NCBI GenBank assembly: GCA_026134025.1
Contig: JAOQII010000002.1
Coordinates: 6,008 to 70,007, forward strand
Reading direction: 5' to 3'
Source of the DNA: Candidatus Syntropharchaeum sp.
GTDB lineage: Archaea > Halobacteriota > Syntropharchaeia > Syntropharchaeales > Syntropharchaeaceae
Length of the DNA stretch: 64,000 bases
Shown here: one piece after another, positions 9,514 through 40,661 of the stretch
How the letters are laid out: every line of letters starts with the position of its first letter
How positions within the stretch are numbered: the first letter of the stretch is position 1
Made by a program: the position numbers and the translations under genes
The notes under the pieces: generated by a model
What the model saw: the letters and a program-made list of their open reading frames with translations, nothing else
Told to the model about the DNA's origin: nothing
Database searches by the model: none

Positions 9514-12315
9514 TTATAGCACCCGCTTCAACCACTCCCCTGTATACGTCCCTGACGCTGCAACCTCCTCTGGTGATCCCACTGCCACAACCTCGCCCCC
9601 TTCATCCCCACCTTCAGGCCCGAGATCGATGATATAATCCGCGGACTTTATCACGTCAAGGTGATGCTCGATCACGACGATCGTATTCCCTTCATCCCGC
9701 AACCTGAAGAGCACACCAAGAAGCTTCTTCACATCCGCAAAATGAAGTCCTGTCGTTGGTTCATCGAGGATGTAGAGCGTTCTTCCTGTGCTACGCTTGC
9801 TTAACTCTGCCGAAAGCTTTATCCGCTGTGCTTCTCCTCCTGAGAGCGTTGTTGCAGGCTGACCCAGACGAACGTACCCCATCCCGACATCAAGAAGTGT
9901 CTTAAGCTTCTTTTCAATCGCTGGAATATCCTTGAAAAACTCATACGCCTCCTCAACAGACATATTCAATACATCAAGAATCGACTTACCCTTGTACTTT
10001 ACCTCAAGCGTCTCACGGTTGTATCTCGATCCCTTGCACACCTCACACTCGACATACTTCTCAGGCAGAAAGTGCATCTCGATCGTGATAAATCCTGCGC
10101 CCTCACATGCTTCGCACCTTCCACCTTTGACATTGAAGCTGAACCTTCCTGGTTTATATCCGCGTTTACGCGCCTCAGGAGTCTTTGCAAAAAGTTCTCG
10201 AATCGGTGTGAACGCGCCTGTGTAGGTTGCAGGGTTTGATCTTGGTGTTCGCCCGATAGGTGACTGATCGATCACGATGACCTTATCGATGAGCGTAACG
10301 CCATCAATCCCACTGTGCCTGCCAGGGTAGGTCTTTGCACGGTTCACCCTCCTCGCAAGTGCCTTGTAGAGGATCTCATTCACGAGCGTGGACTTACCAG
10401 AGCCTGATACGCCAGTCACACACGTGAAAAGTCCGATCGGTATCGAAACATCGATATTTTTGAGGTTATTCTCACGCGCACCTCGTACCACAATAAAACC
10501 TTTTTCTGGCTTTTTTCGAACTTTGGGGATCGAAATTATCTCTTTTTTTAATAAAAACCTTCCTGTGACTGAGTTCTCAACCTTACAGATCTCATCGACT
10601 GTGCCCGCTGCAACGACCCATCCACCATGCTCCCCTGCTCCAGGTCCAAGATCCACGATGTGATCCGCGCTTCTTATGATTCCTTCATCATGTTCAACGA
10701 TTATGAGCGTATTTCCAAGATCACAGAGCCTTCTGAGGGTCTCAATCAGCCGCTCATTATCTCGCTGGTGAAGACCGATCGAAGGCTCATCCAGCACGTA
10801 GAGTACACCAACAAGCCCAGATCCGATCTGTGATGCAAGTCTGATCCGCTGTGCCTCCCCTCCTGAGAGTGTTGCAGATCCTCGATCGAGTGTCAGATAC
10901 CCGAGTCCAACACTCACAAGAAACTCAAGCCGTCCCTCGATCTCTCGAAGGATCTCTTTTGCGATGATCTTATCCTTCTCCGAGAGCTTGAGATCCCTGA
11001 TGAACTTAAGGGCATCGCATATCGCAAGCCCCGTAAACTCGGCAATTCCCATCTCTCCAACTGTAACCGCCCGCGCCACGGCTCTCAGCCTTGTACCACC
11101 ACATGCATCACAGGGGATCATCCGCATGTACCGTTCGATCTCACGCCTTGACCAGCTTGAACCCGTATCCTGGTAACGGCGCATCATGCCGGGGATTACG
11201 CCCTCAAATGCCCTTATTAACCGGTGGCTCATTCTCTTTCCACGGAGATTCATCTCAATCTCTTCATCACCTGAGCCATAGAAGATCATCTCCTGAATCG
11301 CTGGGGCAAGATCTTCAAAAGGGGTAGACATGCTGAATCCATAGTGATCCGCAAGCCCTCGAAGCATCTGGTACGCATATCCTTTCGTTCCCCATGGCTG
11401 GATTGCTCCATCAGCAAGTGATAGCGACCTGTCAGGGACAACGAGATCCTCATCGATTACCATTCTGATACCAAGCCCCTGGCAGGATGAGCATGCACCG
11501 TACGGTGAGTTGAACGAGAATACGCGGGGACTCAACTCCTCAAAATCAATCCCGCACTCAGGACAGGAGAAAGCCTCACTGAAGATTAACTCATTCTCAT
11601 CAATCACCGCCCTCAGAATTCCATCTCCTTCTTTAAGTGCGAGCTCCACGGCCTCGGTTACTCGTTCCACGATATTATCTTCATCCTGCACCCTGATCCG
11701 ATCGATTACAAGGTCTATACGGTGTTTAATATTCTTATCAAGTGGAATTTCTTCATCTAAATGGTAGAGACTCCCATCAACTCTCACCCGCGCAAACCCC
11801 CGTCGCTTCAAATCCTCAAAGAGCTGCCTATATTCTCCTTTTCGATCCTTCACAAGTGGACTCAGAATCTGGATTTGCTCTCTAACAGATGAGCGTATGC
11901 GATCAACAATCTCATCAACACTCTGCCGTTTGACCTCTTTCCCACACTCCGGACAGTGAACCACGCCAATTTTCGCATATAATATCCTCAAATAATCATA
12001 GATCTCTGTGATCGTCCCAACGGTTGATCGCGGATTTCTACCTGCACTCTTCTGATCTATCGAGATCGCAGGCGATAGCCCCTCGATGTAATCGACCTCA
12101 GGCTTCTTCATCTGCTCTAAAAATTGTCTGGCATAGGCTGAGAGCGATTCCACATAACGTCGCTGACCCTCAGCATATATTGTGTCAAATGCTAAAGAAG
12201 ACTTGCCAGAGCCAGATACGCCTGTTATCACGATAAATTTATCTCTTGGGAGCGTTAAATCGAAGTCCTTCAAGTTATGCGCTTTCACACCTTTTATTAT
12301 GATATTTTTCTGCAT
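9514..12315 (-). CDS. uvrA: Excinuclease ABC subunit A
   Basis: 933 aa with two ABC ATPase modules ('GVSGSGKSS', 'GVSGSGKST', 'LSGGEAQR' twice) and zinc-finger Cys pairs. Confidence 0.95.
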
Positions 12316-27738: not shown

Positions 27739-28185
27739 TTGAAGACAGACCTGGTCTATTGGGAAGATGAGATTGGAAAGACGCCAAAGAAGATTTCAGT
27801 AGACGTAAGTCCCTATGGTATACAATTGGGGACGAGAGCAGAGTGGCAGATGGGAATTGCTGCAGAGGATAAGAAGGTTGAGGCAAATGTATTGACGCCG
27901 ATCAAAATAATGCCGGTAACGGTCCCAGAAGGGGCGATTGTGCTACCATGTATCTTCATGCGACACGCACTTGGAATCGTTACAGGTATTACATGCAGTG
28001 GAAGATGTAAACCCGTCGAAGAGGAACGTACAATCTCTGAGGTTCTCTTTCATCCGATTGAAAGTGGCGTAATTTATAAAAATGAGCTTTTGACCGTTAT
28101 AAACATCATACCTGCTGCAATTGAGGAAGAGCTGCCGAGCAAAGAAGCGGTATACAGGTGGATGCAAAAGCGATATGAGGAATGA
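27739..28185 (+). CDS. Hypothetical protein (weak resemblance to the FwdD / molybdopterin-dinucleotide-binding beta-barrel)
   Basis: 148 aa with a TTG start and an ATGA overlap with mvhD. 'VTVPEGAIVLP' loosely recalls the FwdD 'MPEGMIYIP'. No firm assignment. Confidence 0.45.
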   Translation: MKTDLVYWEDEIGKTPKKISVDVSPYGIQLGTRAEWQMGIAAEDKKVEANVLTPIKIMPVTVPEGAIVLPCIFMRHALGIVTGITCSGRCKPVEEERTISEVLFHPIESGVIYKNELLTVINIIPAAIEEELPSKEAVYRWMQKRYEE

Positions 28186-28604
28186 GCTGGCAACCAAAAA
28201 TACTTGCATTCTGCTGTAACTGGTGCTCGTATGCAGGGGCTGATCTTGCAGGGGTTGAACGGAGGCAGATGCCACCCACGGTCAGGATCATACGCGTCAT
28301 GTGCTCAGGCACGGTTGATCCTGCCTGGGTACTTGAGGCTTTTTTAGAGGGTGTGGACGGCGTACTGATAACAGGTTGCCATCCTGGAGAATGTCATTAC
28401 CTTAATGCAAATTATCATACGGCGAGGAGATACCGCCTGCTCGAGGCGTTTGTTAAGGAGTTCGGGCTTGAACCAGCACGACTGCGACTTGAGTGGATCG
28501 CAGCAACAGAGGGCGTTAAGTTTGCAGAGGTTGTGCGAGATATGACCGATAAAATCAGGGCACTTGGCCCAAGCCCGCTAAGGCCAGAAGAGGGGGTTAG
28601 GTGA
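28182..28604 (+). CDS. mvhD: MvhD-type [2Fe-2S] protein (methyl-viologen-reducing hydrogenase delta subunit family)
   Basis: 'KILAFCCNWCSYAGADLAG...IRVMCSGTVDPAWVLEAF..GVDGVLITGCHPGECHY' is the classic MvhD signature. Confidence 0.85.
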   Translation: MSWQPKILAFCCNWCSYAGADLAGVERRQMPPTVRIIRVMCSGTVDPAWVLEAFLEGVDGVLITGCHPGECHYLNANYHTARRYRLLEAFVKEFGLEPARLRLEWIAATEGVKFAEVVRDMTDKIRALGPSPLRPEEGVR

Positions 28605-29749
28605 CGGGTCAATCATACCTTGCATGGGCTAAAGACCCTGAGATCAGAAAACGTGGTGGTTCAGGTGGGTTTGTGACAGCAGCACTTATTGCAGGCATCA
28701 AAGAGGGGATCATCGATGAAGTGCTCCTTGTCAGGCGGATCGATCAGTTCGAGAGTGTACCATACCTGACTCATGATCCTGAGGAGGTTAAATCAGCGAG
28801 CAGTCCACAGCTTGCAGCACCATTAAATCTCTCATCCTACATACCCAGGGGCGTAAAGGTTGCTGTCACGACGAAGCCATGTGATGCAAGGGCGATCATT
28901 GAACGTGCAAAGCGCGGACGTTTCGAGCTTGAGGATGTCTACATGGTTGGACTCAACTGCGGGGGTACGATGCCACCGGTATCAACCGTAGCGTCGGTTC
29001 GTGATATCTTCGGAGTTGATCCTGATACGGTTACAGGTATTGAGATCGAGAGAGGAGAGCTTATCTTCAAGCGAGATAGAGGCGAAGATTTGACCATCTC
29101 AATCGATGAAGCTGAGAAGAAGGGCTATGGTAGGCGTGAGTCGTGTAAGTACTGTAATACCAACATCCCTGAAATGGCAGATCTTGCATGTGGGAACTGG
29201 GGTGTGCCATCTGATCAAAGAGCAACATTTGTCGAGATCCTGAGTGCAAAGGGTGAAGAGCTTTTTGAGGCTGCAAAGAAAACTTCCATGATCGAGTTTG
29301 AGGATGCAACTCAGAAAGAGCTCGAAAAGCGCCTGAAAATAGACAGGCGAATGCGTGAACTTGCGAATCGAAGGTGGGATGAGGTTGCTGGTGTGCTTGA
29401 TGAAATGGATCGCTTAGCCTATTATATCAACGAGTTTAGCCGTTGTATCCATTGTGAAAGCTGTAAGATCGTCTGTCCAGTATGTGTTTGTGAGGCTGAT
29501 GCCAAGTGCCTTGATATGGGACAGGGAAACAATCATTACAGGATCTCACTCTATAATATGATCAGGCTCTTTCATCTGATGGACTCGTGCATCGGTTGTG
29601 GGCAGTGTGAGGACGTATGCCCGGTTGATATACCACTCACCATGATTCACCAGCGATTTGAGAGGCGGATGGAGGAGATGATTGGCTATCGACCTGGTTT
29701 TGATCTTCAAAAGCCACCGCTGCAAAAGCCAGAGGAAGGGGTGAAGTGA
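28601..29749 (+). CDS. FrhB/FdhB-family F420-binding Fe-S protein with C-terminal 2x[4Fe-4S]
   Basis: 'RGGSGGFVTAALIAGIKEGIIDEVLLV' and 'CKYCNTNIPEMADLACGNWG' (FrhB N and C domains). The C-terminus has 'CIHCESCKIVCP' and 'CIGCGQCEDVCP'. This is the FdhB-like architecture. GTGA overlap with mvhD. Confidence 0.75.
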   Translation: MTGQSYLAWAKDPEIRKRGGSGGFVTAALIAGIKEGIIDEVLLVRRIDQFESVPYLTHDPEEVKSASSPQLAAPLNLSSYIPRGVKVAVTTKPCDARAIIERAKRGRFELEDVYMVGLNCGGTMPPVSTVASVRDIFGVDPDTVTGIEIERGELIFKRDRGEDLTISIDEAEKKGYGRRESCKYCNTNIPEMADLACGNWGVPSDQRATFVEILSAKGEELFEAAKKTSMIEFEDATQKELEKRLKIDRRMRELANRRWDEVAGVLDEMDRLAYYINEFSRCIHCESCKIVCPVCVCEADAKCLDMGQGNNHYRISLYNMIRLFHLMDSCIGCGQCEDVCPVDIPLTMIHQRFERRMEEMIGYRPGFDLQKPPLQKPEEGVK

Positions 29750-30738
29750 TGGAGTTTATACCGAGTATCTGTCCTGGGTGCTGTATCAACTGCGGGCTTT
29801 ACATCGTGAGGGATGAAGATGGTGGTATCAGGATTGACTACCGTAAATCATCCTCGGTCAATGAGGGTAAACTATGCAGATTCGGGGTAGAGCTTGGAGA
29901 CCTTTACTCACAGGAGCATCTTAAAGCCACCGTGAATGGTAAAGAGGTTGATTTTAATACCGCAAAAAAAGAAGCTTTGAAGCGGTTGAAGAAAACTGAT
30001 CCCAGATCGACAGGATTTTTAGCAATGGGTAACTCAACGAATGAGGAGATACGGGCGTTCAAGAAACTTGCAGGGGAGCTAGGAATTCGGAATATCGACT
30101 GTGGTCTATCAAAGCAGATTTTGAACGTGCCTGAAGCTGCAAGAAATTATCTCACAGCAGGAGTACCACTCAGAGAGATTGAGCAGGCAGAGAAGATCCT
30201 GCTGATCTCGTTCAACCCGGAAAACTACCCACTTATCATCAGGAGATTGCTTCGCGCAGAGCGGAATGGTGCTGAACTTCTCAAGGTCGGGTCCGGTGAG
30301 CCATATGTGGGAAGGGGTGCGATTATAGTCTCAGAGCTTGCCCCAACGAGTGATCCTGCATCCATCAGGCAAATCATTGAAGAAGCAGATGATACAGCCA
30401 CAATTCTTTTCATGAAGCCGTATGCAAACTTAAATGGTGCAATTAGACTTGGCTTCTATGGGTTTGACCTGATCGAGGCAATAAGAAGCGATGAGATAAA
30501 ATCACTATTTCTGCTTGATCCTCCACCAGGTTATGAAGATATATTCCACGACCTTGAGCTTCTTGTTGTTCAATCAGATCATGAGAGTGAGGTAACAGAG
30601 ATGGCAGATATTACACTTCCTTCACCACGTTTTTTCGAGCGAAGAGGGACGGTCGTGAATGTTGAGGGTGACGTGCTGCCAGTCGGTGGCGATTCGGGAG
30701 CAGGTGTTGAGATTCCCTCAAAGATCATTTTTCCTTAA
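29746..30738 (+). CDS. Truncated molybdopterin-oxidoreductase-like protein (FdhA/FwdB N-terminal part only)
   Basis: The N-terminal Fe4S4 motif is 'CPGCCINCG...NEGKLCRFG', followed by 'LAMGNSTNEEIRAFKKLAGELGIRNIDCG'. It is only 330 aa, against 680 aa or more for FdhA, and ends at a TAA. Confidence 0.65.
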   Translation: MMEFIPSICPGCCINCGLYIVRDEDGGIRIDYRKSSSVNEGKLCRFGVELGDLYSQEHLKATVNGKEVDFNTAKKEALKRLKKTDPRSTGFLAMGNSTNEEIRAFKKLAGELGIRNIDCGLSKQILNVPEAARNYLTAGVPLREIEQAEKILLISFNPENYPLIIRRLLRAERNGAELLKVGSGEPYVGRGAIIVSELAPTSDPASIRQIIEEADDTATILFMKPYANLNGAIRLGFYGFDLIEAIRSDEIKSLFLLDPPPGYEDIFHDLELLVVQSDHESEVTEMADITLPSPRFFERRGTVVNVEGDVLPVGGDSGAGVEIPSKIIFP

Positions 30739-30824: not shown

Positions 30825-31949
30825 ATGGAGAAGATAGGAAGACCACATCATGATTTTACAGAGGAATGGGCTTATGAACGTTGGATGTTTGAGACGCACA
30901 TACTTGGAAGACCTGGCGATTCCAAGCGAGAGACGCCGATAAAGCTTACGCAGTCGCTTGATAAGTATCTGCAGACTGAGGTCTCGCAGTGGTGGAGAAT
31001 CGGAATGCTTGAGAGTTCTCAGACGGTCAATCTGTGGACACAGGGTCTCTTAGTAGATCCAGAGAATACCACCGTGACACTGGGTTATCCACCCTGTTAC
31101 TCCGCGGCTGTGCCGCTTGACCCTGCTGCAACGATTGCATTATTTGGTAAATCACTCGATCTCTGCTGGTTGCAATCCGATAACTTCTCAGGGAGGGCAA
31201 ACCCTCATACCGTCTCATATCACTACGAGGATGGTGTGATGACGTACATCGCGATGACCGACCCGGGTGAGGGGCAGGAGCTTGTTGAGCGGAAGCACAT
31301 GAAGGTCGGTAAGGAGGTAAAAGATCTCCCATACAATTATCCCGCGTTTGAGGCCGTGATGCTGATCAGGGATGTGATGATGGATGCAAGGAACGAGGAT
31401 ACCCCGGAGTATGCGATGTCTGCGTACCATCAGGGATGCTGGCAGGCACACCACGGCTACAACGAGTCTTTCCCCTCAAGATCGACGATGGATGCGATCA
31501 TGGGTATGTATCCGTTCTTCAACTGTGAGAAGATGGGGTGGCCCTTCAAGTCAACCTGTGATGAGCTACCAAGGCCCGTGGGGCTTGAGCTTTTAGTTGA
31601 GAACCCACCAGATATCTTCACATGGAGATGGAACGCACTGATTCTGGGTGAGAACTGGTCGAGCAAGTACACGATCTCACCCCACGAGCTGCACCTCGAG
31701 CTGCAGGGTATGGAGACGATTCCATGCACACCAGAAGAGACTGCCCGCAGGATCATCAGATATGGTATGGATAGATACGTCTTCCCTGAGACGTTCAAGC
31801 AGTCGACGTACATCTATGGGGATGAGGCAAGGGTACAGGAGCCAACAGAGTATCCACTCCCTGCCAAGACTGTTGTCTCTCACAAGGATGCAACCGATCT
31901 GATCTATAAAGCGCGAAAAGAACATCCTGAATGGATAATGGAGGTATAA
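30825..31949 (+). CDS. Hypothetical protein, 374 aa, rich in Trp, Tyr and His (occupies the position of mcrB but has no McrB motifs)
   Basis: Strong SD and a long ORF with a 3-nt gap to the next gene. I recognise no family. The McrB signatures (for example SHSIYGGGGPG) are absent. Confidence 0.7.
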   Translation: MEKIGRPHHDFTEEWAYERWMFETHILGRPGDSKRETPIKLTQSLDKYLQTEVSQWWRIGMLESSQTVNLWTQGLLVDPENTTVTLGYPPCYSAAVPLDPAATIALFGKSLDLCWLQSDNFSGRANPHTVSYHYEDGVMTYIAMTDPGEGQELVERKHMKVGKEVKDLPYNYPAFEAVMLIRDVMMDARNEDTPEYAMSAYHQGCWQAHHGYNESFPSRSTMDAIMGMYPFFNCEKMGWPFKSTCDELPRPVGLELLVENPPDIFTWRWNALILGENWSSKYTISPHELHLELQGMETIPCTPEETARRIIRYGMDRYVFPETFKQSTYIYGDEARVQEPTEYPLPAKTVVSHKDATDLIYKARKEHPEWIMEV

Positions 31950-31952
31950 AAG

Positions 31953-32498
31953 ATGCCGATAGATTACAGTGTTTCAAAGAAGATTGTCGAGAATGGCATG
32001 GTGAACGTGGATAAACTCTGCCCTCACTCAGGGTTTGACAACGATATATATAATATACCGGCATGCAAGGCACCGATCGTTAACAAAGAGCTTTTATACT
32101 CGTACGTCCCAGATTGTGGGGTCTTCATGGGTCCAAAGACGACAAAGGCAAAATCACTTGTATATGGTGGAGAAGCAGAACCGCTCTATACGTATACCTG
32201 TGAGAAGGGGCACAAGTTTGTACGATGGTCTGGATGGTGTGATGTTCCCGAGGTTGAGCCTGGAACGAATGACCTGCACATGAGCGCTGAGACACTTGTC
32301 AAAGAGGGTAAGATGTTCGGGAGGCTTGAGAACTTTGAACCAAGGAGTACCCCAGGCTATGTATCAGTGGTCAAGAAGATTGAGGAAGAGGGATACACCC
32401 CAACCCAGGACGAGATGGAACAGTTCGGCATAACCCCAGAGGGAAAGGGACATGGAAATCCAGCCGTGCATGAATTGAAGAAGTGGGGATTGAAGTAG
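31953..32498 (+). CDS. Hypothetical protein, 181 aa, with 5 Cys (occupies the position of mcrG but has no McrG motifs)
   Basis: Starts 3 nt after the previous stop. Cys/His pattern: 'CPHSG', 'PACK', 'PDCG', 'YTCEKGH' and 'GWCDVP'. The McrG signature (RYRG.D.GTLSGRQ) is absent. Confidence 0.65.
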   Translation: MPIDYSVSKKIVENGMVNVDKLCPHSGFDNDIYNIPACKAPIVNKELLYSYVPDCGVFMGPKTTKAKSLVYGGEAEPLYTYTCEKGHKFVRWSGWCDVPEVEPGTNDLHMSAETLVKEGKMFGRLENFEPRSTPGYVSVVKKIEEEGYTPTQDEMEQFGITPEGKGHGNPAVHELKKWGLK

Positions 32499-32528
32499 TT
32501 ATTTAGTTAATTATAAGTATAAAAGAAG

Positions 32529-34412
32529 GTGAATAAATTGGCTAAGAAGAAGAAGGCGACCAAGGGAGGGGTAAGTACTGGGCTTACAGATCTCGAGGAT
32601 AAGTATCGGAACAAGATGTTCCATGAGGTAACCGAGGGGACCGTCATCTCAACAGAGCTTGCATACAGTTACGATCCACTGAAACTGAAAGATGAGTTCA
32701 TGCCAGTAGAGCGTCAGCGGGAGATTTACAAGGCTCTCGATACGCTCTTCAATGGCGAACCGATGGATACTGTCGATGAGGAATCGTATCGGCATGGTGG
32801 TGTCCAGCAGTGTAAATCAAAGCGAGACTGGACTGAGTGGGGTAAGAAAATCTCGGTTGAGCGTGGAATCCCGCAGTACAACCGTGAGATGGGTATCCCG
32901 CTGGGTCAGCGATACTATGAACCTATTCTTGTATCAAATACCGACTATGTCGTGGACTATGATGACTTCTCGATCTACAACAACTGCGCGATCCAGCAGT
33001 TGATGGATGATATGAGAAAGACCGTGATAATCGGGCTTGATGTCCCGCATCGAGTCATCCAGCTCAGGCTCGGTAAGGAGATCTCTCCTGAGTCGATGAA
33101 CCTCTACATGGAGACGATGCAGCACGTGCTCGCAGGCGGTGCGGTTGTCCAGGAACACATGGCAGAGGCACATCCAGGTCTTGTTACTGATGCGTATGCG
33201 AAGATTATCACAGGAAACGCGGATCTTGCAGAGCAGTTCGATAGAAGATGGGTGATGAGTATTGAGAAAGAGTTCCACCCATCAAGGGCTGAACCTCTCC
33301 ACGAAACGATCGGAAACAGGCTCTACAATACGATCAGAACCCATACGCTCAGGCTGAGGATGACAAATGGAGCGGCTGTCATCAGGAGTGCGGCTATCGC
33401 TGTCACGATGTCATTTGTCGCGGCATACAAATTAACAGGCGAGTCGGTCCTATCTGATATCTCATTTGCAACACGGCATGCACAGGCGATTCACATGGGG
33501 CTTCCAACGTGGCTCTCGAGATCGCAGTCGCCGAACGAGCCTGGAGGAATCCCACTGGGGTACTGGGCTGATATGTGCTGTGCTGAGAAGGAGCTGCCGA
33601 ATACACCATGGATGAAGGCTGTTACCATCGAGCGGGACATGCAGCTCGGAAAAGATATGACCCAGGCTGTGCTTGAGTGCTGTGCTATCGCTTCACATAT
33701 GGATTCGGTATGGTATGGCATCTACATGTCAGGTGGACTTGGATTCCCGGCGTTTGCATATCTCTACTGTGGTAACATCCTCGATGACTGGCTCAACCGT
33801 TTCACTGAACTGTGCTACTACAACTTTGAGGGGCATGAGCGTTTCCCGGATTCGTGGGACTGTGCCAAGGGGATGGGTGAGGTTGCAGCCCTCTACCTCA
33901 TGGAGACGTATGAGAAGTACCCAACACTTCAGGAGCTTCACTGGGGCGGTGCGATCAGGTGCTTCATAACCTCAGCGATCGCAGATTCCTTTGCCGCACT
34001 TTTAACAGGTGATGCACTCCAGGGCTCGATGATCCAGAACTACATCGTCTCACTCCTCATGAAGGAGGGGTGGCTCAGGACCGGCTTTGGTGGACAGGAG
34101 GTGCAGGCACACTGTGGGCCCGCGTACGGGACATCGCTCAGGATCGAAGAGGGTGGACTCCCGGAACTTCGAGGGTCGAACTATCCAATGATGTCCTATA
34201 CAGCGACACACACACCAGGCTATATCACAGGGATTTATGCAGCGATGATAGGTCGAGGATCGTCATGGTCCTGCAGTCCCCTTGTGAAGGTTGCGTTTGC
34301 AGATCCTGATTCGTCATTTGACTTCAAGAATGCGCGGCTCTGCATCGCAAAGGGCTGCGCAAACGAGTTTGAACCGCAGGGTGAGCGTGACCTGATAAGG
34401 CCTGCACGATAA
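32529..34412 (+). CDS. mcrA: Divergent methyl-/alkyl-coenzyme M reductase alpha-subunit homologue (orphan McrA-like protein)
   Basis: It aligns by eye with McrA along its whole length. Matching blocks are 'ERGIPQYNREMGIPLGQR', 'RKTVIIGLD..RLGKEISPE', 'GGAVVQEHMAEAHPGLVTDAY', 'SPNEPGGIPLGYWADM', 'YMSGGLGFPAFAY..GNILDDW', 'LPELRGSNYP', 'SPLVKVAFAD' and 'EFEPQGERDLIRPA'. It is 627 aa with an N-terminal extension of about 60 aa. The start is GTG 32529 or TTG 32538. Confidence 0.9.
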   Translation: MNKLAKKKKATKGGVSTGLTDLEDKYRNKMFHEVTEGTVISTELAYSYDPLKLKDEFMPVERQREIYKALDTLFNGEPMDTVDEESYRHGGVQQCKSKRDWTEWGKKISVERGIPQYNREMGIPLGQRYYEPILVSNTDYVVDYDDFSIYNNCAIQQLMDDMRKTVIIGLDVPHRVIQLRLGKEISPESMNLYMETMQHVLAGGAVVQEHMAEAHPGLVTDAYAKIITGNADLAEQFDRRWVMSIEKEFHPSRAEPLHETIGNRLYNTIRTHTLRLRMTNGAAVIRSAAIAVTMSFVAAYKLTGESVLSDISFATRHAQAIHMGLPTWLSRSQSPNEPGGIPLGYWADMCCAEKELPNTPWMKAVTIERDMQLGKDMTQAVLECCAIASHMDSVWYGIYMSGGLGFPAFAYLYCGNILDDWLNRFTELCYYNFEGHERFPDSWDCAKGMGEVAALYLMETYEKYPTLQELHWGGAIRCFITSAIADSFAALLTGDALQGSMIQNYIVSLLMKEGWLRTGFGGQEVQAHCGPAYGTSLRIEEGGLPELRGSNYPMMSYTATHTPGYITGIYAAMIGRGSSWSCSPLVKVAFADPDSSFDFKNARLCIAKGCANEFEPQGERDLIRPAR

Positions 34413-34425
34413 GGAGGTATTAGCG

Positions 34426-35013
34426 ATGGTATACTATGGAGAGGTTGCACCAACTGCATATGAAAACGTACCAGGGCACTTTCTACCAACACCGCCACTG
34501 CCTGACAGGTGGTGGGATGATGTTGACTGGATCATCCTGAAGGATCACGAACCGACAGCGTACGAGATGCTCTTTGACTTCTACATCAACATGATCGTGC
34601 CAAATCCGAAGTGCACGATGGTTTCATCGAGATTTCCGCCAAGGTCAATCCTTATCGAGACGTGGCACCCCGAGCGTGGGCTTGAGGTTAACAGGTTCAT
34701 GATATCCCCTGGTGGGATCAGAGAGGGTGCACCTGAGCCAGGATCAGGTGTTGAGGTCGATACAATCTTCAGGATCGACTACTATGACCTCGCAAATATC
34801 CTGCTCGGCAATAAGCGACCAACCGATCCTGTGGCTGATAACGCAAGGATCAATGAGCTCTATGGTGGTCCGTGTCTCAGGGGAAACCTGACGGCACTCA
34901 TCGATTTCAAGGATATCATCATGCTTGCACATGGTAAGCGATGGAAGACTGAGTGTGATGATGATCTCGGAAAGGAAGTAAGAGCGATGATGTGGCCTGA
35001 TGGCCACCCCTAA
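34426..35013 (+). CDS. Hypothetical protein, 195 aa, with a possible SCP2-like (lipid/alkyl-binding) C-terminal half
   Basis: Starts 13 nt after the mcrA-like stop, with SD aaggaggt. 'FRIDYYDLANILLGNKRPTDPV...LRGNLTALIDFKDI' resembles the SCP2 pattern 'D..D...l..GK.nP..af..GklkikGnm.la.kl'. The assignment is tentative. Confidence 0.55.
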   Translation: MVYYGEVAPTAYENVPGHFLPTPPLPDRWWDDVDWIILKDHEPTAYEMLFDFYINMIVPNPKCTMVSSRFPPRSILIETWHPERGLEVNRFMISPGGIREGAPEPGSGVEVDTIFRIDYYDLANILLGNKRPTDPVADNARINELYGGPCLRGNLTALIDFKDIIMLAHGKRWKTECDDDLGKEVRAMMWPDGHP

Positions 35014-35043
35014 TTTTTTTTCTTTTTTAATCAAAATATTTTT

Positions 35044-36108
35044 TTGATGAAACTCTGTGCACCCCTGCCCGGGCATCTTGACGCAACAAAGAAGATTCTA
35101 AAAGAAGAAGCTTCCAATCTCCATGAAGTCTTCATGGCTGGGTCTTCAGATTATATCCCAACAGGCAGGCAGGCTCTTGGAGAATCCTTCAGTGAGACGA
35201 TAGAAGAGACAACGAGGCTTGTACATGAAGATAACCTTCGCATGGACGTTGTGATGAACGCCTCGTGCATGGGAGGAAGACACCTCACGGATGAGGGTTT
35301 GCACCGTTACATGAGCTACCTTGAGATACTCGCACGTGCGGGTGTTGATGCTGTGACGCTTGCAGATCCCTACCTCATCGAGGTTGCATCCAGAAACTTC
35401 TCGTTTGATGTCATCGTCTCATGTATCTCCTTTGTGGATTCTCCAGAGAAGGCTATCTTCTATGAAGAGCTTGGTGCGGATGGTATAACAGTTGATACGA
35501 GTATAAACAGAGATTTCCACGTGCTTGAGGCGATTAGAGATGCTGTATCCTGTGATATCAGGGTTCTTGTCAATGAAGGGTGTCTCTATAAATGTCCTTT
35601 CAGGTACTTTGACTTCAACGTCGTATCGCATACCTCAGGTCCTCCGCCAGTACCAAAGATCTCATTCAACTACTACCAGCGCAAATGCAGATCTTTGAGG
35701 GTTAAGAAGCCGTGGCTTCTGATGAAGGCAAACTGGGTAAGGCCAGAAGACCTGAAGGCATACGAAGAGATCGGGATCGATACCTTCAAGATAAGCGGGA
35801 GAAATCAACCTGTAAACTGGGTGATCGAGACCATCAAGACCTATAAAAGCAGGGACTTTTCCGGAAATCTCATCGATCTTCTCGATTATTCAAGGAGTAT
35901 GAAGCATCTCTTCTACATCCCAAATAAGAAACTCGATGGGGCGATAGATAGATGGAAGTCATGTGACAGGAACTGTCATCGATGTGGGTTCTGCAAAGAT
36001 CTGACAGCGCAGATCATGAAGGTATATCTTGAGAGGGGGACGGATCGAGAAATGCTTGTAAGTCTAACTGAGTTGAATGAAGGAGTTCCTGATGAATACC
36101 CTGAATAA
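35044..36108 (+). CDS. Peptidase-U32-family protein (the family that includes UbiU/UbiV, RlhA and TrhP)
   Basis: TIM-barrel-like layout: 'ILARAGVDAVTLADPYLIEVA', 'EELGADGITVDTSINRDF' and 'IRVLVNEGCLYKCPFRY', which resembles the U32 'EvFvhGalC...G.C' motif. There is also a C-terminal Cys cluster 'CDRNCHRCGFC'. Confidence 0.6.
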   Translation: MMKLCAPLPGHLDATKKILKEEASNLHEVFMAGSSDYIPTGRQALGESFSETIEETTRLVHEDNLRMDVVMNASCMGGRHLTDEGLHRYMSYLEILARAGVDAVTLADPYLIEVASRNFSFDVIVSCISFVDSPEKAIFYEELGADGITVDTSINRDFHVLEAIRDAVSCDIRVLVNEGCLYKCPFRYFDFNVVSHTSGPPPVPKISFNYYQRKCRSLRVKKPWLLMKANWVRPEDLKAYEEIGIDTFKISGRNQPVNWVIETIKTYKSRDFSGNLIDLLDYSRSMKHLFYIPNKKLDGAIDRWKSCDRNCHRCGFCKDLTAQIMKVYLERGTDREMLVSLTELNEGVPDEYPE

Positions 36109-36469
36109 TTTGCTCGATCATCGAGGATCGATTGAGAAGCGTCTCATGAAACTGACAGGACGTGTGATCTGGGTTGTACAGCTCAATCTATCCTCCTTCA
36201 GCTGCGGGTGCACCGGGATAACGATATTTTTTGCGGGGCTTGAGAAAGAGGACGTTGAGGTATTTGCATCCAGGATCGTCGAGATACTCAACGAGGTCAC
36301 AGCAAGCGTGAGACTTGATCCTGATATCATCTATGCGTCGCTGGTACCTGGATCATCAGAGGTTGGCTCGATCTCACTGAAACGCCTATGTGATGAATGC
36401 AGAAAAGACTATGGCGGAGATGTAAGGCCCTGGAGTAACATAAGCATTCTTTATAAAAAAGCGTGCTAA
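36092..36469 (+). CDS. Hypothetical protein (about 125 aa), last gene of the McrA-like operon
   Basis: The ORF overlaps the U32 gene's 3' end by 17 nt (32 nt if it starts at 36077). I recognise no family. Confidence 0.4.
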   Translation: MNTLNNLLDHRGSIEKRLMKLTGRVIWVVQLNLSSFSCGCTGITIFFAGLEKEDVEVFASRIVEILNEVTASVRLDPDIIYASLVPGSSEVGSISLKRLCDECRKDYGGDVRPWSNISILYKKAC

Positions 36470-36516
36470 ACCCTCCAAAAACATTCACGCCCTACGACAA
36501 TTATATGCGAGAAAGA

Positions 36517-36524
36517 CTTAAATA
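36517..36524 (+). promoter_or_regulatory. TATA-like box (ttaaataa) for tRNA-Asp
   Basis: Lies 28-35 nt upstream of tRNA position 1, which fits the archaeal spacing of about -27. Confidence 0.35.
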
Positions 36525-36551
36525 ATGTGGAGAGAGTGATAGTATATCTCT

Positions 36552-36624
36552 GCCCGGGTAGTGTAGAGGCCCATCATGGAGCCCTGTCGAGGCTTCGACT
36601 CGGGTTCGAATCCCGACCTGGGCG
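36552..36624 (+). tRNA. tRNA-Asp (anticodon GTC)
   Basis: Cloverleaf folded by hand. The acceptor stem GCCCGGG/CCTGGGC has one G-U pair. The anticodon stem GAGCC/GGCTT closes the loop CTGTCGA. The T-arm is GGGTTCGAATCCC. 73 nt, no encoded CCA, and a T6 tract follows at 36629-36634. Confidence 0.9.
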
Positions 36625-36659
36625 TACATTTTTTATCTATTGAGATTGTTAATCAAAAT

Positions 36660-39600
36660 ATGCGTTCTTATTACACTAATATTAAGCGAATGAGGGAGAT
36701 CATTAAAAATTGTGAGGGCTTTGATCGGATCATCGTTGTAACATCAAATAAGAATCAGGCGGCATTCTGGAAAAAGAGGCTTGATGGGGTCAAAGATCAG
36801 ATCATAGGTCAAAATTCGAAGATCTATGTTGTTCTTGAAGAATGGAAGGCTGGACAGCTTCTTGGCACATTGAACGCGTGGAATGAAGCCTGTAAGGAGG
36901 AGGATCTTGATGCACTTCTGGAGAATGGGGGGAAGGTTGCTATATACCACACCGCGGGTCTTGGGAAGCGTATGGCGCCGATTGTTCAATCAGAGGGGGG
37001 AGATAAATCTGCGATTAAGCTTCCAGGGTTACTTGAATATGACGGGCAAAAGGTACCAATGAGACTGCTTGAAGCTGTAATATACCAGTCTTCGATATTT
37101 GCACCGTCTCGTAGGGGCAGGATCTGCGTTTTCTGGACAGATCAGGTCTTTATTCCATCAGGAGATGTGGAGTTTGAAGGAAAGCATCACGTCGAACTCT
37201 TGAGTATCAGAAGAGAAGCACCGAGAACCCGGGAGGATTGGGACCAGAACTGGCGGTCTTACGGGCTTGTAATCCCTGATGATGATGGGGCAATGATGCT
37301 CGAGAAGCAAACCTGGGATGAGTTTACGAGGCTCATCGATGGTGGCATCATAAAGCCAAAGAAAGGGAAGTTTGTAATCGCAAAAGGACTTGGATGTTTC
37401 TCGATATCACATAAATTCTTCATTGAAGTTCTTGCTGCGTTCAGGAAGGATCTGGAAGAGCGAGGGAAGCTTGATACAGATCCTGATCTGTGGATGCCCC
37501 TGACATCACCCCAATTTGTTGAGACCGAGAAAAGGGCAAGAGTTGAAGGTTTGATAGATAAATTTGCACCGGGAGATCTGATCTTTAAAGATAAAGACGT
37601 GGGTGCTGATACATACTGGTGGGACTTTGGACAGGTCAGGCTCTACCATCAAAACCTGTTGAAACTGACAGAGGAGACAGAAGAGGGGGAGGTGATGCGT
37701 ACCTTCTTCAGGATCTGGAATGGCTCATCTGTGGTTGATAGCGTGATTAAGGATTCAGATCTTAGAGCGTGTGTCGTGATCTCAAGCCGGCTCAAGGGCG
37801 TGAGAGCGAAAAACTCTGTCATCTACAACTGTATCGAGCTTTCTGGATTCTCGGCTGAGAAGGAGGTTGTTGCAGATATTTTTCATCCGCTCAAGGGAAA
37901 GATAAGGATGAGAGCAGAGATATCTCGGGATGGAAAAAAAGACTGGAACCAGCGAATTTCTCCAAACTCATATACCTACGAGGAGCTTGAGTGTTTGATG
38001 AGAGATGTCTCGATGGATGAAATACACAAAGAGAGGCGTGTCTGGGAGAACTACTTCACACTGGATCTTGGAGCGGAATTTGATAGACTTAAATATTCAG
38101 GTGTACGGTTTAAGGAGAATCTCGTTCTGAAGGCATGGGGATACGAGTCCTGGCTCTGCTCTGCTCATCCCGCAAACCCATCGATGATAAGGGTTAGAGA
38201 TCTTGATATACCCCTGATTCACCTCCTGAATCATTGTGGAAGCTCGATAATCGGTAAGCAGATTTACAGCGATTTCAAGGGTGAGTTTCCGATACTGACC
38301 AAGTTCATAAACGCAGAGGAGAACCTATCTGTCCAGGTCCACCCATCTGATGAGGATGCTGAGCTTTTAGGTGAGGTTGAACGAGGAAAGACCGAGAGCT
38401 GGTACGTGATCGATGCAAAGCCAGGTGCAAAGATATATCTTGGCCTTAAAGAGGGGATCTCTGATCTTTCTGCGATTACAGAGGATGACCTGAATGCGAT
38501 CGAGGTTAAAGCTAATGATGTGTTCCTCATTCCTGCAGGAACACTTCATGCGATAGGTGGGGGAATTCTCCTCTTTGAGATTCAGGAATCGTCTGATATA
38601 ACATACAGGGTCTGGGATTGTGGGAGGGGGAGAGAACTTCATCTTGAGAAGGCGAGAGTAGTTTGCGTCTTTGATCAGGATCCAACTAATTTAAAACAAA
38701 GTCCTGAGCAAGTTAATGGCGAGATAGTACTTGTTGATACGCTTTATTTCACTTTATCGCTTATAGAAAGCGGTAAAGAGGAGACCATGGGATCATTTCA
38801 TCTTCTGACCGCGATCGAAGAAGATGCTGTGCTGGAGGTTGATGGAAGGCACGAGGAGTTAAAAAAAGGTGATACGGTCTTGATTCCAGCATCTATCCCG
38901 GCATACAGGATCAGATCGCGTGGAAAGGTTCTGAAGTCGTATCTTCGCACGCCTGAACAGATAGATCCTGTGATCTTCCAGACGTATGATGTGAGAGCTC
39001 ATGAGAGCAAACTTCCAGACCGGGTCTGCTATTACCTTGGAAAGGGATATGGGACCTATCTGCGCAGGCTTAAAGGTGCACCAGAAGGTGAGTTATGGGT
39101 CTGCATCGGCGGTGGGATCAGGCTCTCAACCCCACGGATAAGAAAGTCGCTCATCGCTGGAGTCTTATCAAGTGGTGTCAACGTCTACGATCTTGGGATA
39201 ACCTCAACACCAGAACTTTACTTCTCAATCCCCTTCCTCGGTGCGGATGGTGGGATAAATATAACAGCATCTCACAACCCGGCTTTTTACAACGGCCTTA
39301 AACAGGTCATAAAAAGTGATGATGGTTTCATATCAAGCATAAATCGTGATGAGATGCTTGAGATAAAAAGGACGATCCTCGAATCGGATTTTCTTGAGGG
39401 GAAAGGAAGGTCGATGAAGGTCGAGGAGGGATCGATCCCCAGATACCATAACATTCTCGTTGAGTCAAATTGCAGACTCGGCAGGGAGATCTGGATTCAT
39501 CTTTTAAAGAATTGGAACCTGAGAGAACTTCTCGATACGCTCTCAAACGTGAGCTTTCCAGAAAAGGCAGATCGAAAAAGCTTGAAAGCGATTAAGGAGA

Positions 39601-40661
39601 GGCTTCGGATTCCAGATGACCTTGAGTTGCCCATTACAGCGGTTGATAAGCCACTGGCTGGTCTGAAAGTTGTTATAGACTTTGGTAACGGCTCTGCATG
39701 GAGGACACAACGTGTGTATGAAAATCTGGGCTGTGAGGTCATTGGCTTGAATCAAAAACCTGATGGAAATTTCCCAGCCCATCATCCTGACCCCATCAAG
39801 GCAAAATACCGAAAAGAGCTTGAAGAAACTACTGTCAGGGTTGCAGCACAGGAGAAAGAGAAGGAAGTTGTGGGGTTCGGGCACGACGAGGATGGGGATC
39901 GCGTAATTTTTGTCAGATCTGATGGAAAGGTTGTTGAGGGAGATCGGACGCTTGCGATACAGGCGAAAGATATAATAGAGGATTACAGCACAAGAGGGAA
40001 AAAACCAAAATTCATCGGTGAGGTTAAGTTCTCACGGGTTACAGAAGAGTTCATAACGTCGAGTGGGGGCGAGTATATCATGACACCGACGGGTTTTGCC
40101 TTCATAAAGGAGCGGATAAAGGAAGAATACAAGAAGGGGGAAGATGTTGTGCTTGCAGCAGAGCTTTCAGGACATCAGATGACAGGGCATGAAGAGAACT
40201 GGATGTTTGATGACGGAACAATGGCAGCCTGTAAACTTCTTATTGTAATCGCAAAGGCAAGGTCTGAGGGCAAGACGTTCATCGATCTTGATGAGGCTAT
40301 TCCACGCTATCCTGCAACACCTGAGATAAACATAAAACTTCCAACGAATGCGCTCGATGAGAAGGAGGAGATTGTGAGAACAGCTCTCAGGCGATTTGAA
40401 GAGATGGATTTTGAGATAGATTACACTGATGGTGGCTTGATAAAGTGGTATGATGACGAGGGTTGGGCGGGGCAGGCACTCATCAGAAAATCAAACACAC
40501 AGCCGATGATAATATGCAGGGTTGAAGGCAGGGATGAAGCGAGAAAGGAAAGGGTCGAGGCAGAGTTCTTCGGCGTGCTTGAGCAAATATCGACCGATGT
40601 TCTCGATAAGCTTGATCTTGAGTCTGATGATTACCTCAGGGAATGGAAAGTTAAGAGATAA
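36660..40661 (+). CDS. Three-domain fusion: FPGT/fucokinase-N-like sugar-1-phosphate nucleotidyltransferase + type I mannose-6-phosphate isomerase + phosphomannomutase/phosphoglucomutase
   Basis: The N-terminus has 'RIIVVTSNKNQAAFWKKRL' (FPGT-like). The middle part has the PMI cupin motifs 'QVHPSDEDAE', 'TESWYVID' and 'IPAGTLHAIGGG..EIQESSDITYRVWD'. The C-terminus has the PGM/PMM motifs 'NITASHNPAFYNG', 'GHDEDGDR' and 'AELSGH'. The start was moved to ATG 36660 because the ORF-track start overlaps tRNA-Asp. Confidence 0.85.
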   Translation: MRSYYTNIKRMREIIKNCEGFDRIIVVTSNKNQAAFWKKRLDGVKDQIIGQNSKIYVVLEEWKAGQLLGTLNAWNEACKEEDLDALLENGGKVAIYHTAGLGKRMAPIVQSEGGDKSAIKLPGLLEYDGQKVPMRLLEAVIYQSSIFAPSRRGRICVFWTDQVFIPSGDVEFEGKHHVELLSIRREAPRTREDWDQNWRSYGLVIPDDDGAMMLEKQTWDEFTRLIDGGIIKPKKGKFVIAKGLGCFSISHKFFIEVLAAFRKDLEERGKLDTDPDLWMPLTSPQFVETEKRARVEGLIDKFAPGDLIFKDKDVGADTYWWDFGQVRLYHQNLLKLTEETEEGEVMRTFFRIWNGSSVVDSVIKDSDLRACVVISSRLKGVRAKNSVIYNCIELSGFSAEKEVVADIFHPLKGKIRMRAEISRDGKKDWNQRISPNSYTYEELECLMRDVSMDEIHKERRVWENYFTLDLGAEFDRLKYSGVRFKENLVLKAWGYESWLCSAHPANPSMIRVRDLDIPLIHLLNHCGSSIIGKQIYSDFKGEFPILTKFINAEENLSVQVHPSDEDAELLGEVERGKTESWYVIDAKPGAKIYLGLKEGISDLSAITEDDLNAIEVKANDVFLIPAGTLHAIGGGILLFEIQESSDITYRVWDCGRGRELHLEKARVVCVFDQDPTNLKQSPEQVNGEIVLVDTLYFTLSLIESGKEETMGSFHLLTAIEEDAVLEVDGRHEELKKGDTVLIPASIPAYRIRSRGKVLKSYLRTPEQIDPVIFQTYDVRAHESKLPDRVCYYLGKGYGTYLRRLKGAPEGELWVCIGGGIRLSTPRIRKSLIAGVLSSGVNVYDLGITSTPELYFSIPFLGADGGINITASHNPAFYNGLKQVIKSDDGFISSINRDEMLEIKRTILESDFLEGKGRSMKVEEGSIPRYHNILVESNCRLGREIWIHLLKNWNLRELLDTLSNVSFPEKADRKSLKAIKERLRIPDDLELPITAVDKPLAGLKVVIDFGNGSAWRTQRVYENLGCEVIGLNQKPDGNFPAHHPDPIKAKYRKELEETTVRVAAQEKEKEVVGFGHDEDGDRVIFVRSDGKVVEGDRTLAIQAKDIIEDYSTRGKKPKFIGEVKFSRVTEEFITSSGGEYIMTPTGFAFIKERIKEEYKKGEDVVLAAELSGHQMTGHEENWMFDDGTMAACKLLIVIAKARSEGKTFIDLDEAIPRYPATPEINIKLPTNALDEKEEIVRTALRRFEEMDFEIDYTDGGLIKWYDDEGWAGQALIRKSNTQPMIICRVEGRDEARKERVEAEFFGVLEQISTDVLDKLDLESDDYLREWKVKR

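Follow-up and report, generated by a model that had tools for sequence, protein, structure and literature searches.

One of the closest described systems is UbiT-UbiU-UbiV (Pelosi et al. 2019, PMC6747719), in which the gene of an SCP2 protein lies beside that of a U32 protein with conserved cysteine residues. The same juxtaposition is found in a 64,000-nt stretch of Candidatus (Ca.) Syntropharchaeum sp. (contig JAOQII010000002.1, positions 6,008 to 70,007), hereafter called the window. There, an SCP2-like gene and a U32 gene follow acrA, the gene of a divergent homologue of McrA, the alpha subunit of methyl-coenzyme M reductase (MCR), of the type belonging to alkyl-coenzyme M reductases (ACRs). 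A preliminary description had likened the two proteins to UbiT and UbiU-UbiV. The present analysis of sequences and predicted structures points instead, with a probability of roughly 60%, to two separate modules that abut: an SCP2-like ACR accessory protein for a hydrophobic ligand, and a U32-DUF5402 pair that would act as an Fe-S, O2-independent hydroxylase-type module.

UbiU and UbiV are two U32 paralogues, whereas the partner of the window U32 protein is a DUF5402 protein and not a second U32 subunit. The cysteine pattern of the window U32 protein departs from the CX6CX16CX38C and CXnCX12CX3C patterns of UbiU/UbiV and includes an extra CX3CX2CX2C motif. The SCP2-U32 linkage is confined to one genus, unlike that of UbiT with its U32 pair. 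The elements concerned are as follows.

34426 to 35013, + strand: SCP2-like protein of 195 residues, starting with ATG; assigned by family profile, fold and gene context
35014 to 35043, + strand: 30-nt spacer TTTTTTTTCTTTTTTAATCAAAATATTTTT, 93% A+T, with T8, T6 and T7 runs
35044 to 36108, + strand: U32-family protein of 354 residues counted from TTG; assigned by Pfam, alignment and the match to structure 5d88
36077 to 36469, + strand: DUF5402 protein of 130 residues (Pfam E 4e-27), overlapping the stop codon of the U32 gene

Ca. Syntrophoarchaeum butanivorans BOX1 has a cluster of the same gene order, with proteins 64-91% identical. Measured against these orthologues, the SCP2-like gene has a ratio of nonsynonymous to synonymous divergence (dN/dS) of 0.11, the U32 gene one of about 0.06 and the DUF5402 gene one of 0.22 (0.065 for a 374-residue gene upstream of acrA), so that the three are regarded as real, constrained genes. 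The true start of the U32 gene is likely the ATG at 35047, as in a 99%-identical homologue.

Although the preliminary description had called the 195-residue protein SCP2-like from a weak motif match, the call was borne out. A profile of 18 family members matched SCP2 structures in the Protein Data Bank (PDB), namely 4uei (1.7e-5), 1c44 (1.4e-4), and 2c0l and 1qnd (both 4e-4). PF02036 was matched by seven of the 18 members (best 2.3e-8), and seven members matched the SCP2-like Alkyl_sulf_C family. The AlphaFold2 model (pLDDT 82.6, pTM 0.80) was compared with the PDB by Foldseek, and its best 34 matches were all of SCP2 fold, with a probability of 0.89-1.00 (1.00 for the top 22), including SCP2, MFE-2 SCP2L, UbiJ-SCP2 and alkylsulfatase C-terminal domains. 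By profile and model, the protein is predicted to have the alpha/beta fold of the SCP2 superfamily (PF02036), and the C-terminal signature of that superfamily (D..DL..L..G.......G......GN) aligns. Members such as UbiJ-SCP2, UbiT and the alkylsulfatase C-terminal domain bind lipids, quinone intermediates or alkyl chains. In contrast to the superfamily, the window protein scores under the Pfam threshold and carries conserved motifs flanking the SCP2 core, PLPxGWW in an N-terminal extra segment of about 45 residues and WPxGHP at the C terminus. No likeness specific to UbiT was found: hhalign against Escherichia coli UbiT gave a probability of 13.6% (E 0.002) over the SCP2 C-terminal region only, and UbiJ and other SCP2 proteins rank equal to UbiT in the Foldseek search.

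The family is small and, unlike the superfamily at large, confined to archaeal acr gene clusters. Only five close homologues were found in a set of 5.8 billion proteins, and an exhaustive profile search among 1.84 billion cluster representatives returned 17 clusters. Co-occurrence was judged from local gene contexts and organism names, and taxonomic statements here and below cover only those database entries in which an organism is named. In nine of nine lineage contexts, the SCP2-like gene stands directly after acrA or acrG, which sustains the tie to the McrA-like gene drawn in the preliminary description. The gene orders are:

Archaeoglobi: acrB-acrG-acrA-SCP2
Alkanophaga and the metagenome-assembled genome (MAG) CSMAG_2293: acrB-acrG-SCP2
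tar-biofilm MAG: acrA-SCP2-B12 radical SAM
lineage with a 37%-identical member: acrG-acrA-SCP2-ABC ATPase-B12-binding protein
window and S. butanivorans only: 374-residue protein-181-residue protein-acrA-SCP2-U32-DUF5402

The U32 gene thus adjoins the SCP2-like gene in two of the nine lineages, both Syntrophoarchaeum; in the other seven, no U32 gene is close by. The tested McrA proteins linked to the family (614-627 residues) all score 381-537 bits against the canonical cut-off of 768 bits. With a query of six sequences, genome matches were obtained in Syntrophoarchaeum, Ca. Alkanophaga volatiphilum and liquidiphilum, three Archaeoglobi MAGs, the tar-biofilm MAG (Halobacteriota) and MAG CSMAG_2293 (Methanobacteriota); a metagenome scan added one further S. 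butanivorans-like contig only. More distant named members belong to Helarchaeota (one cluster member is labelled Hodarchaeota), Bathyarchaeota BA2, whose member is already annotated as an 'SCP-2 sterol transfer family protein', and a Methanomicrobia MAG. All named members come from ACR-bearing lineages, spread over three archaeal phyla, and among the genomes matched none of the family accompanies a canonical MCR or an ethane-type enzyme.

As a small non-catalytic protein encoded in a reductase gene cluster, the SCP2-like protein recalls McrD. McrD, however, goes with canonical MCR and the SCP2-like family with divergent ACRs, and no sequence or fold similarity between them is detectable. An identification of the SCP2-like protein as McrD itself was tried and rejected, with no Pfam match and no McrD chain among the PDB sequence and fold matches.

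The genes that come after the SCP2-like gene differ from lineage to lineage. In Archaeoglobi and CSMAG_2293 (contigs L015, 10023-13039; L001, 6190-9645; L003, 1898-3187), the next gene encodes a protein of about 430-517 residues, which ends at the contig end in L003; the L001 copy is labelled DUF8179 by precomputed hits and found no match in our own scan. In L015 and L001 it is followed by DUF2113 and McrC, which are MCR activation-type genes. A B12-binding radical SAM enzyme is encoded downstream in the tar-biofilm MAG (L004, 10410-11714), and a tandem ABC ATPase, which we take to resemble MCR component A2, together with a B12-binding protein in L028 (971-3302).

Turning to the U32 gene, the 354-residue product is predicted by domain match and model to be a U32-family TIM barrel, in agreement with the preliminary description. 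PF01136, the sole Pfam domain found, scored 48 bits against a cut-off of 22.4, and the Methanopyrus kandleri U32 structure 5d88 was matched both by sequence (7e-24) and by Foldseek (9.3e-16, TM score 0.77 by target length), the model being a confident TIM barrel (pLDDT 89.4). This structure, of Mk0906, is the closest solved one; the cysteines of the NEGCLYKC motif are missing in its aligned stretch, and the solved chain has 254 residues only. A placement of the window protein in Kimura's PepU32#4 group, which has a euryarchaeal reference sequence and includes Porphyromonas gingivalis PrtC, is uncertain. The NCBIfam equivalogs for UbiU (13.8 bits, cut-off 440) and TrhP (11.2 bits, cut-off 534) failed, UbiV was not among the matches, and Pfam placed no DUF3656 or Peptidase_U32_C domain in the protein. 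With RlhA and TrhP, the window protein has in common a U32 TIM-barrel domain with conserved, presumably Fe-S-binding cysteine residues; it differs from them in the absence of DUF3656 or the U32 C-terminal domain, in its partner protein and in the failure of the TrhP model.

Eight cysteine residues are invariant among 37 homologues, namely Cys-75, Cys-180, Cys-184 and Cys-215, and the C-x3-C-x2-C-x2-C series Cys-307, Cys-311, Cys-314 and Cys-317. The preliminary description had asked whether the four Fe-S cysteines of UbiU/UbiV are conserved; their positions were taken from PMC6747719. In a gappy alignment with the E. coli proteins at 19-21% identity, Cys-75 and Cys-215 fall on Cys-39 and Cys-180 of UbiV, Cys-180 lies one column from Cys-176 of UbiU, and the remaining ligands did not align.

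Orthologues of the U32 protein at 45-55% identity occur in Methanococcoides, Methanolobus, Methanoperedens, Methanophagales (one of the anaerobic methanotrophic archaea, ANME-1), Methanothermobacter, Methanopyri and Syntropharchaeia, and all named members of the clade at identities of at least 40% come from MCR- or ACR-bearing archaea. Because the acr-adjacent copies nest among Syntropharchaeia sequences in a neighbor-joining tree, the window protein is a lineage-specific paralogue, particular to Syntrophoarchaeum, within this U32 clade of methanogens, ANME and alkanotrophs.

The DUF5402 gene, which the preliminary description did not mention, overlaps the end of the U32 gene. In every context read (n = 8) a DUF5402 gene adjoins or, usually, overlaps the U32 gene, and the alignment shows an invariant CxC...CxxC pattern (Cys-43, Cys-45, Cys-105 and Cys-108). 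The constant partner of the U32 protein is DUF5402, not a second U32 protein or the SCP2-like protein. The pair is found in methanogens, ANME and Syntropharchaeia, mostly among housekeeping genes. It lies directly upstream of mtrEDCBAFGH in Methanococcoides burtonii and near THUMP methyltransferases in Methanothermobacter, and in a Syntropharchaeia MAG the U32 gene overlaps an RNase PH-domain gene, near Trm1. S. butanivorans has a second U32-DUF5402 pair elsewhere in its genome.

In this second pair (contig L011, 5539-6264) and in a metagenomic relative (L025, 9049-9795), DUF5402 is a fused tandem duplication of 241-248 residues, each half of which retains the CxC...CxxC pattern. The U32 and DUF5402 genes of L011 are separated by an inserted gene whose product has DUF8426 and Mrr_cat restriction-endonuclease domains. 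Small open reading frames (ORFs) come after the genes of more distant U32 relatives (about 33% identity; bacteria and one Asgard archaeon); these ORFs were compared with DUF5402 as possible remote relatives, and the comparison gave no support. The Asgard copy, on a Promethearchaeota contig (L027, 1-4137; 469 residues, about 33% identity), comes after a radical SAM gene and an aromatic prenyltransferase (PTase_Orf2), a context that suggests O2-independent hydroxylation in the biosynthesis of a prenylated aromatic compound.

Between the SCP2-like and U32 genes, the spacer differs from its surroundings in composition. Only 0.013% of 30-nt segments are as A+T-rich, and the other such islands located are intergenic. 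The last T run of the spacer extends into the start region of the U32 gene, and the two together hold three of the 22 runs of at least six T on the + strand, including the only T8. The equivalent spacer of S. butanivorans is likewise T-rich. Oligo-T tracts are a termination signal in archaea. From its sequence, the spacer resembles an oligo-T terminator joined to an A/T-rich promoter region and would mark a boundary between transcription units. The preliminary description had placed both genes inside the McrA-like operon. For the SCP2-like gene this probably holds: it starts 13 nt past the end of acrA with a strong Shine-Dalgarno sequence (GGAGG, 7 nt ahead of the ATG) and is probably co-transcribed with acrA and the two genes upstream of it. 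The U32 gene, on the other hand, lies beyond the boundary-like spacer.

Divergence from S. butanivorans was compared gene by gene, as amino acid identity and synonymous divergence (dS).

374-residue gene: 91% identity, dS 0.83
acrA: 85% identity
SCP2-like gene: 87% identity, dS 0.76
U32 gene: 72% identity, dS 3.6, saturated
DUF5402 gene: 64% identity, dS 1.5

The jump in divergence is confined to the U32-DUF5402 segment (35044-36469, against 10625-12040 of the S. butanivorans-like contig L013). It suggests recombination, replacement, a different or relaxed constraint, or a different evolutionary history of these two genes. Because of the comparative linkage, the A+T-rich spacer and the divergence jump, the SCP2-like gene and the U32-DUF5402 pair are read as two separate modules.

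Several observations weigh against this reading. By itself, the window 195-residue protein has no SCP2 match in Pfam or NCBIfam at E<=1, and the Foldseek TM scores by target length are moderate (0.6-0.68, the maximum of 0.68 being reached with stand-alone SCP2 chains). The dS of the U32 gene, being saturated, is rough. The restriction of the U32 clade to MCR- and ACR-bearing archaea rests on the minority of matches that carry organism names. The window shares the order SCP2-U32-DUF5402 with two S. butanivorans-like contigs (L013 and L031), and a spacer of 30 nt could allow read-through and a functional link between the SCP2-like and U32 proteins within the genus.

For the SCP2-like module, a role can be proposed from its fold and position. 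The hydrophobic tunnel of an SCP2 domain accommodates lipids, quinone intermediates or alkyl chains. This ligand role is also described in PMC6747719. In such a tunnel, the SCP2-like protein would bind a poorly soluble alkane, the amphipathic alkyl-coenzyme M (alkyl-CoM), or both, and the conserved motifs at its two termini would let it dock on the ACR. Once docked, it would feed substrate in or take product off towards the steps from alkyl-CoM to acyl-CoA, a conversion with no known enzyme (PMC10322722). The docking site may be the open cleft that was modelled in the ACRs of Syntrophoarchaeum, Methanoliparia and Helarchaeota, which its authors propose to admit bulky alkanes and release alkyl-CoM, but to expose the cofactor F430 (PMC9118554). 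The SCP2-like protein may cover this cleft.

The main rival to this carrier role is that the protein serves the ACR as a chaperone, for its assembly or its cofactor, standing in for McrD and carrying an F430 variant. No McrD Pfam match was obtained in the acr clusters examined, each with an SCP2-like gene within it, and the genes downstream include DUF2113 and McrC in Archaeoglobi and CSMAG_2293, and the presumed A2-like tandem ABC ATPase with the B12-binding protein in another lineage. McrD, moreover, is thought to bind F430 (PMC9081873). However, the PDB searches showed no likeness to McrD in sequence or fold, SCP2 tunnels typically carry lipids and not polar tetrapyrroles, and the family was not found with ethane- or methane-type enzymes, which also need F430, so that a chaperone function appears unlikely and binding of a hydrophobic ligand is preferred. 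For the second module, homology with UbiU/UbiV, RlhA and TrhP suggests an Fe-S, O2-independent hydroxylase-type enzyme, in which the U32 barrel would hold one four-cysteine site and a second site at the CX3CX2CX2C motif, which may bind Fe-S or else Zn, and DUF5402 would be a small partner subunit with a predicted Cys4 metal site. As its substrate, something tied to MCR/ACR maturation is tentatively ranked first because the clade is restricted to MCR/ACR lineages, has a paralogue beside the acr genes and, in one case, lies next to mtr. RNA would come behind it as a weaker candidate and alkyl-CoM is improbable, the remainder falling to other substrates. The preliminary description had suggested that the pair hydroxylates an alkyl or alkyl-CoM substrate. 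The SCP2-like and U32 proteins acting like UbiT with UbiU-UbiV, in an O2-independent hydroxylation of alkyl-CoM or a similar thioether towards aldehyde or acyl-CoA, would be in keeping with the 30-nt distance of their genes in two Syntrophoarchaeum species, with folds that agree with those of UbiT and UbiU/UbiV, with the orphan step from alkyl-CoM to acyl-CoA, and with the faster evolution of the ACR-linked U32-DUF5402 copy compared with its neighbors. Yet seven other SCP2-acr contexts have no U32 gene nearby, and methanogens and ANME that form no C2+ alkyl-CoM have orthologues at about 45-55% identity, which share the cysteine set and the DUF5402 partner. These two points disfavor alkyl hydroxylation, and with the DUF5402 partner in place of a second U32, the boundary-like spacer and the failure of the UbiU and TrhP models, a UbiT/UbiU-UbiV-like unit is very unlikely. 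Its most specific form, in which the acr-adjacent paralogue of Syntrophoarchaeum hydroxylates C1 of butyl-CoM without O2, the SCP2-like protein hands over the substrate and the thiohemiacetal yields aldehyde and CoM, must be considered a long shot; if true, it would be the missing link from alkyl-CoM to acyl-CoA in archaeal alkane oxidation.

The preliminary description had also proposed an oxygen-containing modification of the reductase or its cofactor. This is possible, and it would concern U32-DUF5402 and not the SCP2-like protein. U32-DUF5402 could then be a maturation enzyme for hydroxy-Trp, S-oxymethionine, hydroxylation towards didehydroaspartate, or F430 modification, with the acrA-side copy dedicated to this ACR. 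The identity of the named clade members at the 40% level, all from MCR/ACR archaea, the extra copy in the Syntrophoarchaeum acr cluster and the position directly upstream of mtr in M. burtonii agree with such a role. So does the presence of a clade gene in the hydroxy-Trp-bearing ANME-1 and ANME-2d, and no enzyme has been assigned to MCR modifications of the hydroxy-Trp or S-oxymethionine type; the MCR of ANME-1 carries 7-hydroxy-Trp and S-oxymethionine, and that of ANME-2 6-hydroxy-Trp. On the other hand, most contexts of the pair are housekeeping genes, and the clade is present in Methanothermobacter, so that it does not simply track hydroxy-Trp; to our knowledge, the MCR of M. marburgensis has none. 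No Methanosarcina is named among the best 120 U32 matches, and the MCR of M. barkeri has didehydroaspartate. In the window AcrA, an Asn stands at the column of M. kandleri alpha-Trp430, which we tentatively take to be the 6-hydroxy-Trp site. In this dedicated form, maturation is doubtful. An RNA (tRNA or rRNA) hydroxylase like RlhA or TrhP, with an incidental acr adjacency, is likewise a possibility of the doubtful kind. It has in its favor contexts that are RNA-related (the RNase PH-domain gene with Trm1, and the THUMP methyltransferases). We know of no hydroxylated pyrimidine of the RlhA/TrhP kind in methanogen RNA, which counts against it, as do the TrhP score of 11.2 bits against 534 and the absence of DUF3656 and of the U32 C-terminal domain; nor would this reading account for a second copy among the acr genes. 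The characterised non-quinone U32 enzymes do act on RNA (PMC5727448).

The two folds were known already; for the SCP2-like family specific to ACRs and for the U32-DUF5402 module, no earlier description seems to exist. Full-text searches of the literature turned up no paper that connects MCR or ACR with SCP2, U32 or DUF5402, and none of the three is mentioned in the main texts of the papers on Alkanophaga and Helarchaeota; an ANME preprint notes an enrichment of U32 in ANME and leaves it uninterpreted. How ACRs take up poorly soluble alkanes, and how alkyl-CoM is handed on and converted to acyl-CoA, are open questions (PMC10322722, PMC9118554). For the hand-over of alkane or alkyl-CoM, the SCP2-like protein offers a concrete candidate that can be put to the test, and it may also supply a component that the reconstitution of ACRs in other hosts still lacks. 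U32-DUF5402 is a cysteine-rich, uncharacterised module conserved in methanogens and in methane- and alkane-oxidising archaea, and it is a reasonable candidate enzyme because several oxygen-containing modifications of MCR are still without one. For annotation, the analogy with UbiT/UbiU/UbiV is attractive but misleading, and these results correct it.

The modules belong to a tight same-strand cluster at 30825-36625 (+ strand), in the order 374-residue protein, 181-residue protein, acrA, SCP2-like protein, U32, DUF5402 and tRNA-Asp. The remaining features are:

30825 to 32498, + strand: genes of the 374-residue (30825-31949) and 181-residue (31953-32498) proteins, directly upstream of acrA
32529 to 34412, + strand: divergent McrA (AcrA-type) of 627 residues, with both MCR alpha domains
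36551 to 36625, + strand: tRNA-Asp(GTC), marking the downstream end of the cluster

The McrA homologue matched MCR_alpha_N at 1.5e-85 and is considered a divergent, ACR-type protein because it scored 480 bits on TIGR03256 against the canonical cut-off of 768. It is 85% identical to the S. butanivorans copy and 51-55% identical to the SCP2-linked AcrA of Archaeoglobi and of the tar-biofilm MAG. Compared with solved MCR alpha subunits, it carries about 20 extra residues, inserted around positions 350-375. The Asn aligned to M. kandleri alpha-Trp430 lies at about residue 492, a tentative placement from the M. kandleri alignment only. Since no mcrB or mcrG was found among the ORFs of the 64,000-nt window scanned with Pfam, acrA would be a lone alpha-subunit gene. 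In Alkanophaga, the highly expressed cluster-3 acrA stands apart from acrBG, as in Syntrophoarchaeum (PMC10322722), and one of the four acr sets of S. butanivorans is not in an operon (PMC9081873).

The 374- and 181-residue genes, preceded by a TATA-like element and GGAGG ahead of the first, occupy the place upstream of acrA where mcrB and mcrG would be expected. Their products have no Pfam, NCBIfam or PDB match, and an identification as divergent McrB and McrG was rejected (hhalign probability 0.1%). In S. butanivorans, in the tar-biofilm MAG (two tandem pairs) and, on the divergent strand, in Archaeoglobi, homologues adjoin acr genes of the same clade, and the two genes are candidates for further ACR-specific functions.

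Directly upstream of the acr cluster, four overlapping genes (27739-30738) encode a DUF22 protein, an MvhD-like protein, an FrhB/FdhB-like Fe-S flavoprotein and a short FdhA-like molybdopterin protein (330 residues); judged by these resemblances, they may form an electron-transfer module tied to heterodisulfide or F420 chemistry. Elsewhere in the window, genes were found for carbon monoxide dehydrogenase/acetyl-CoA synthase, an electron-transfer flavoprotein with acyl-CoA dehydrogenase, an Fpo-like complex, a thiolase and a multihaem cytochrome, a content that fits a Syntrophoarchaeum-like alkane oxidiser. Downstream of the cluster, an ORF of 1361 residues as listed (36576-40661) begins inside the tRNA-Asp gene (36551-36625), and its true start must for this reason lie further downstream.

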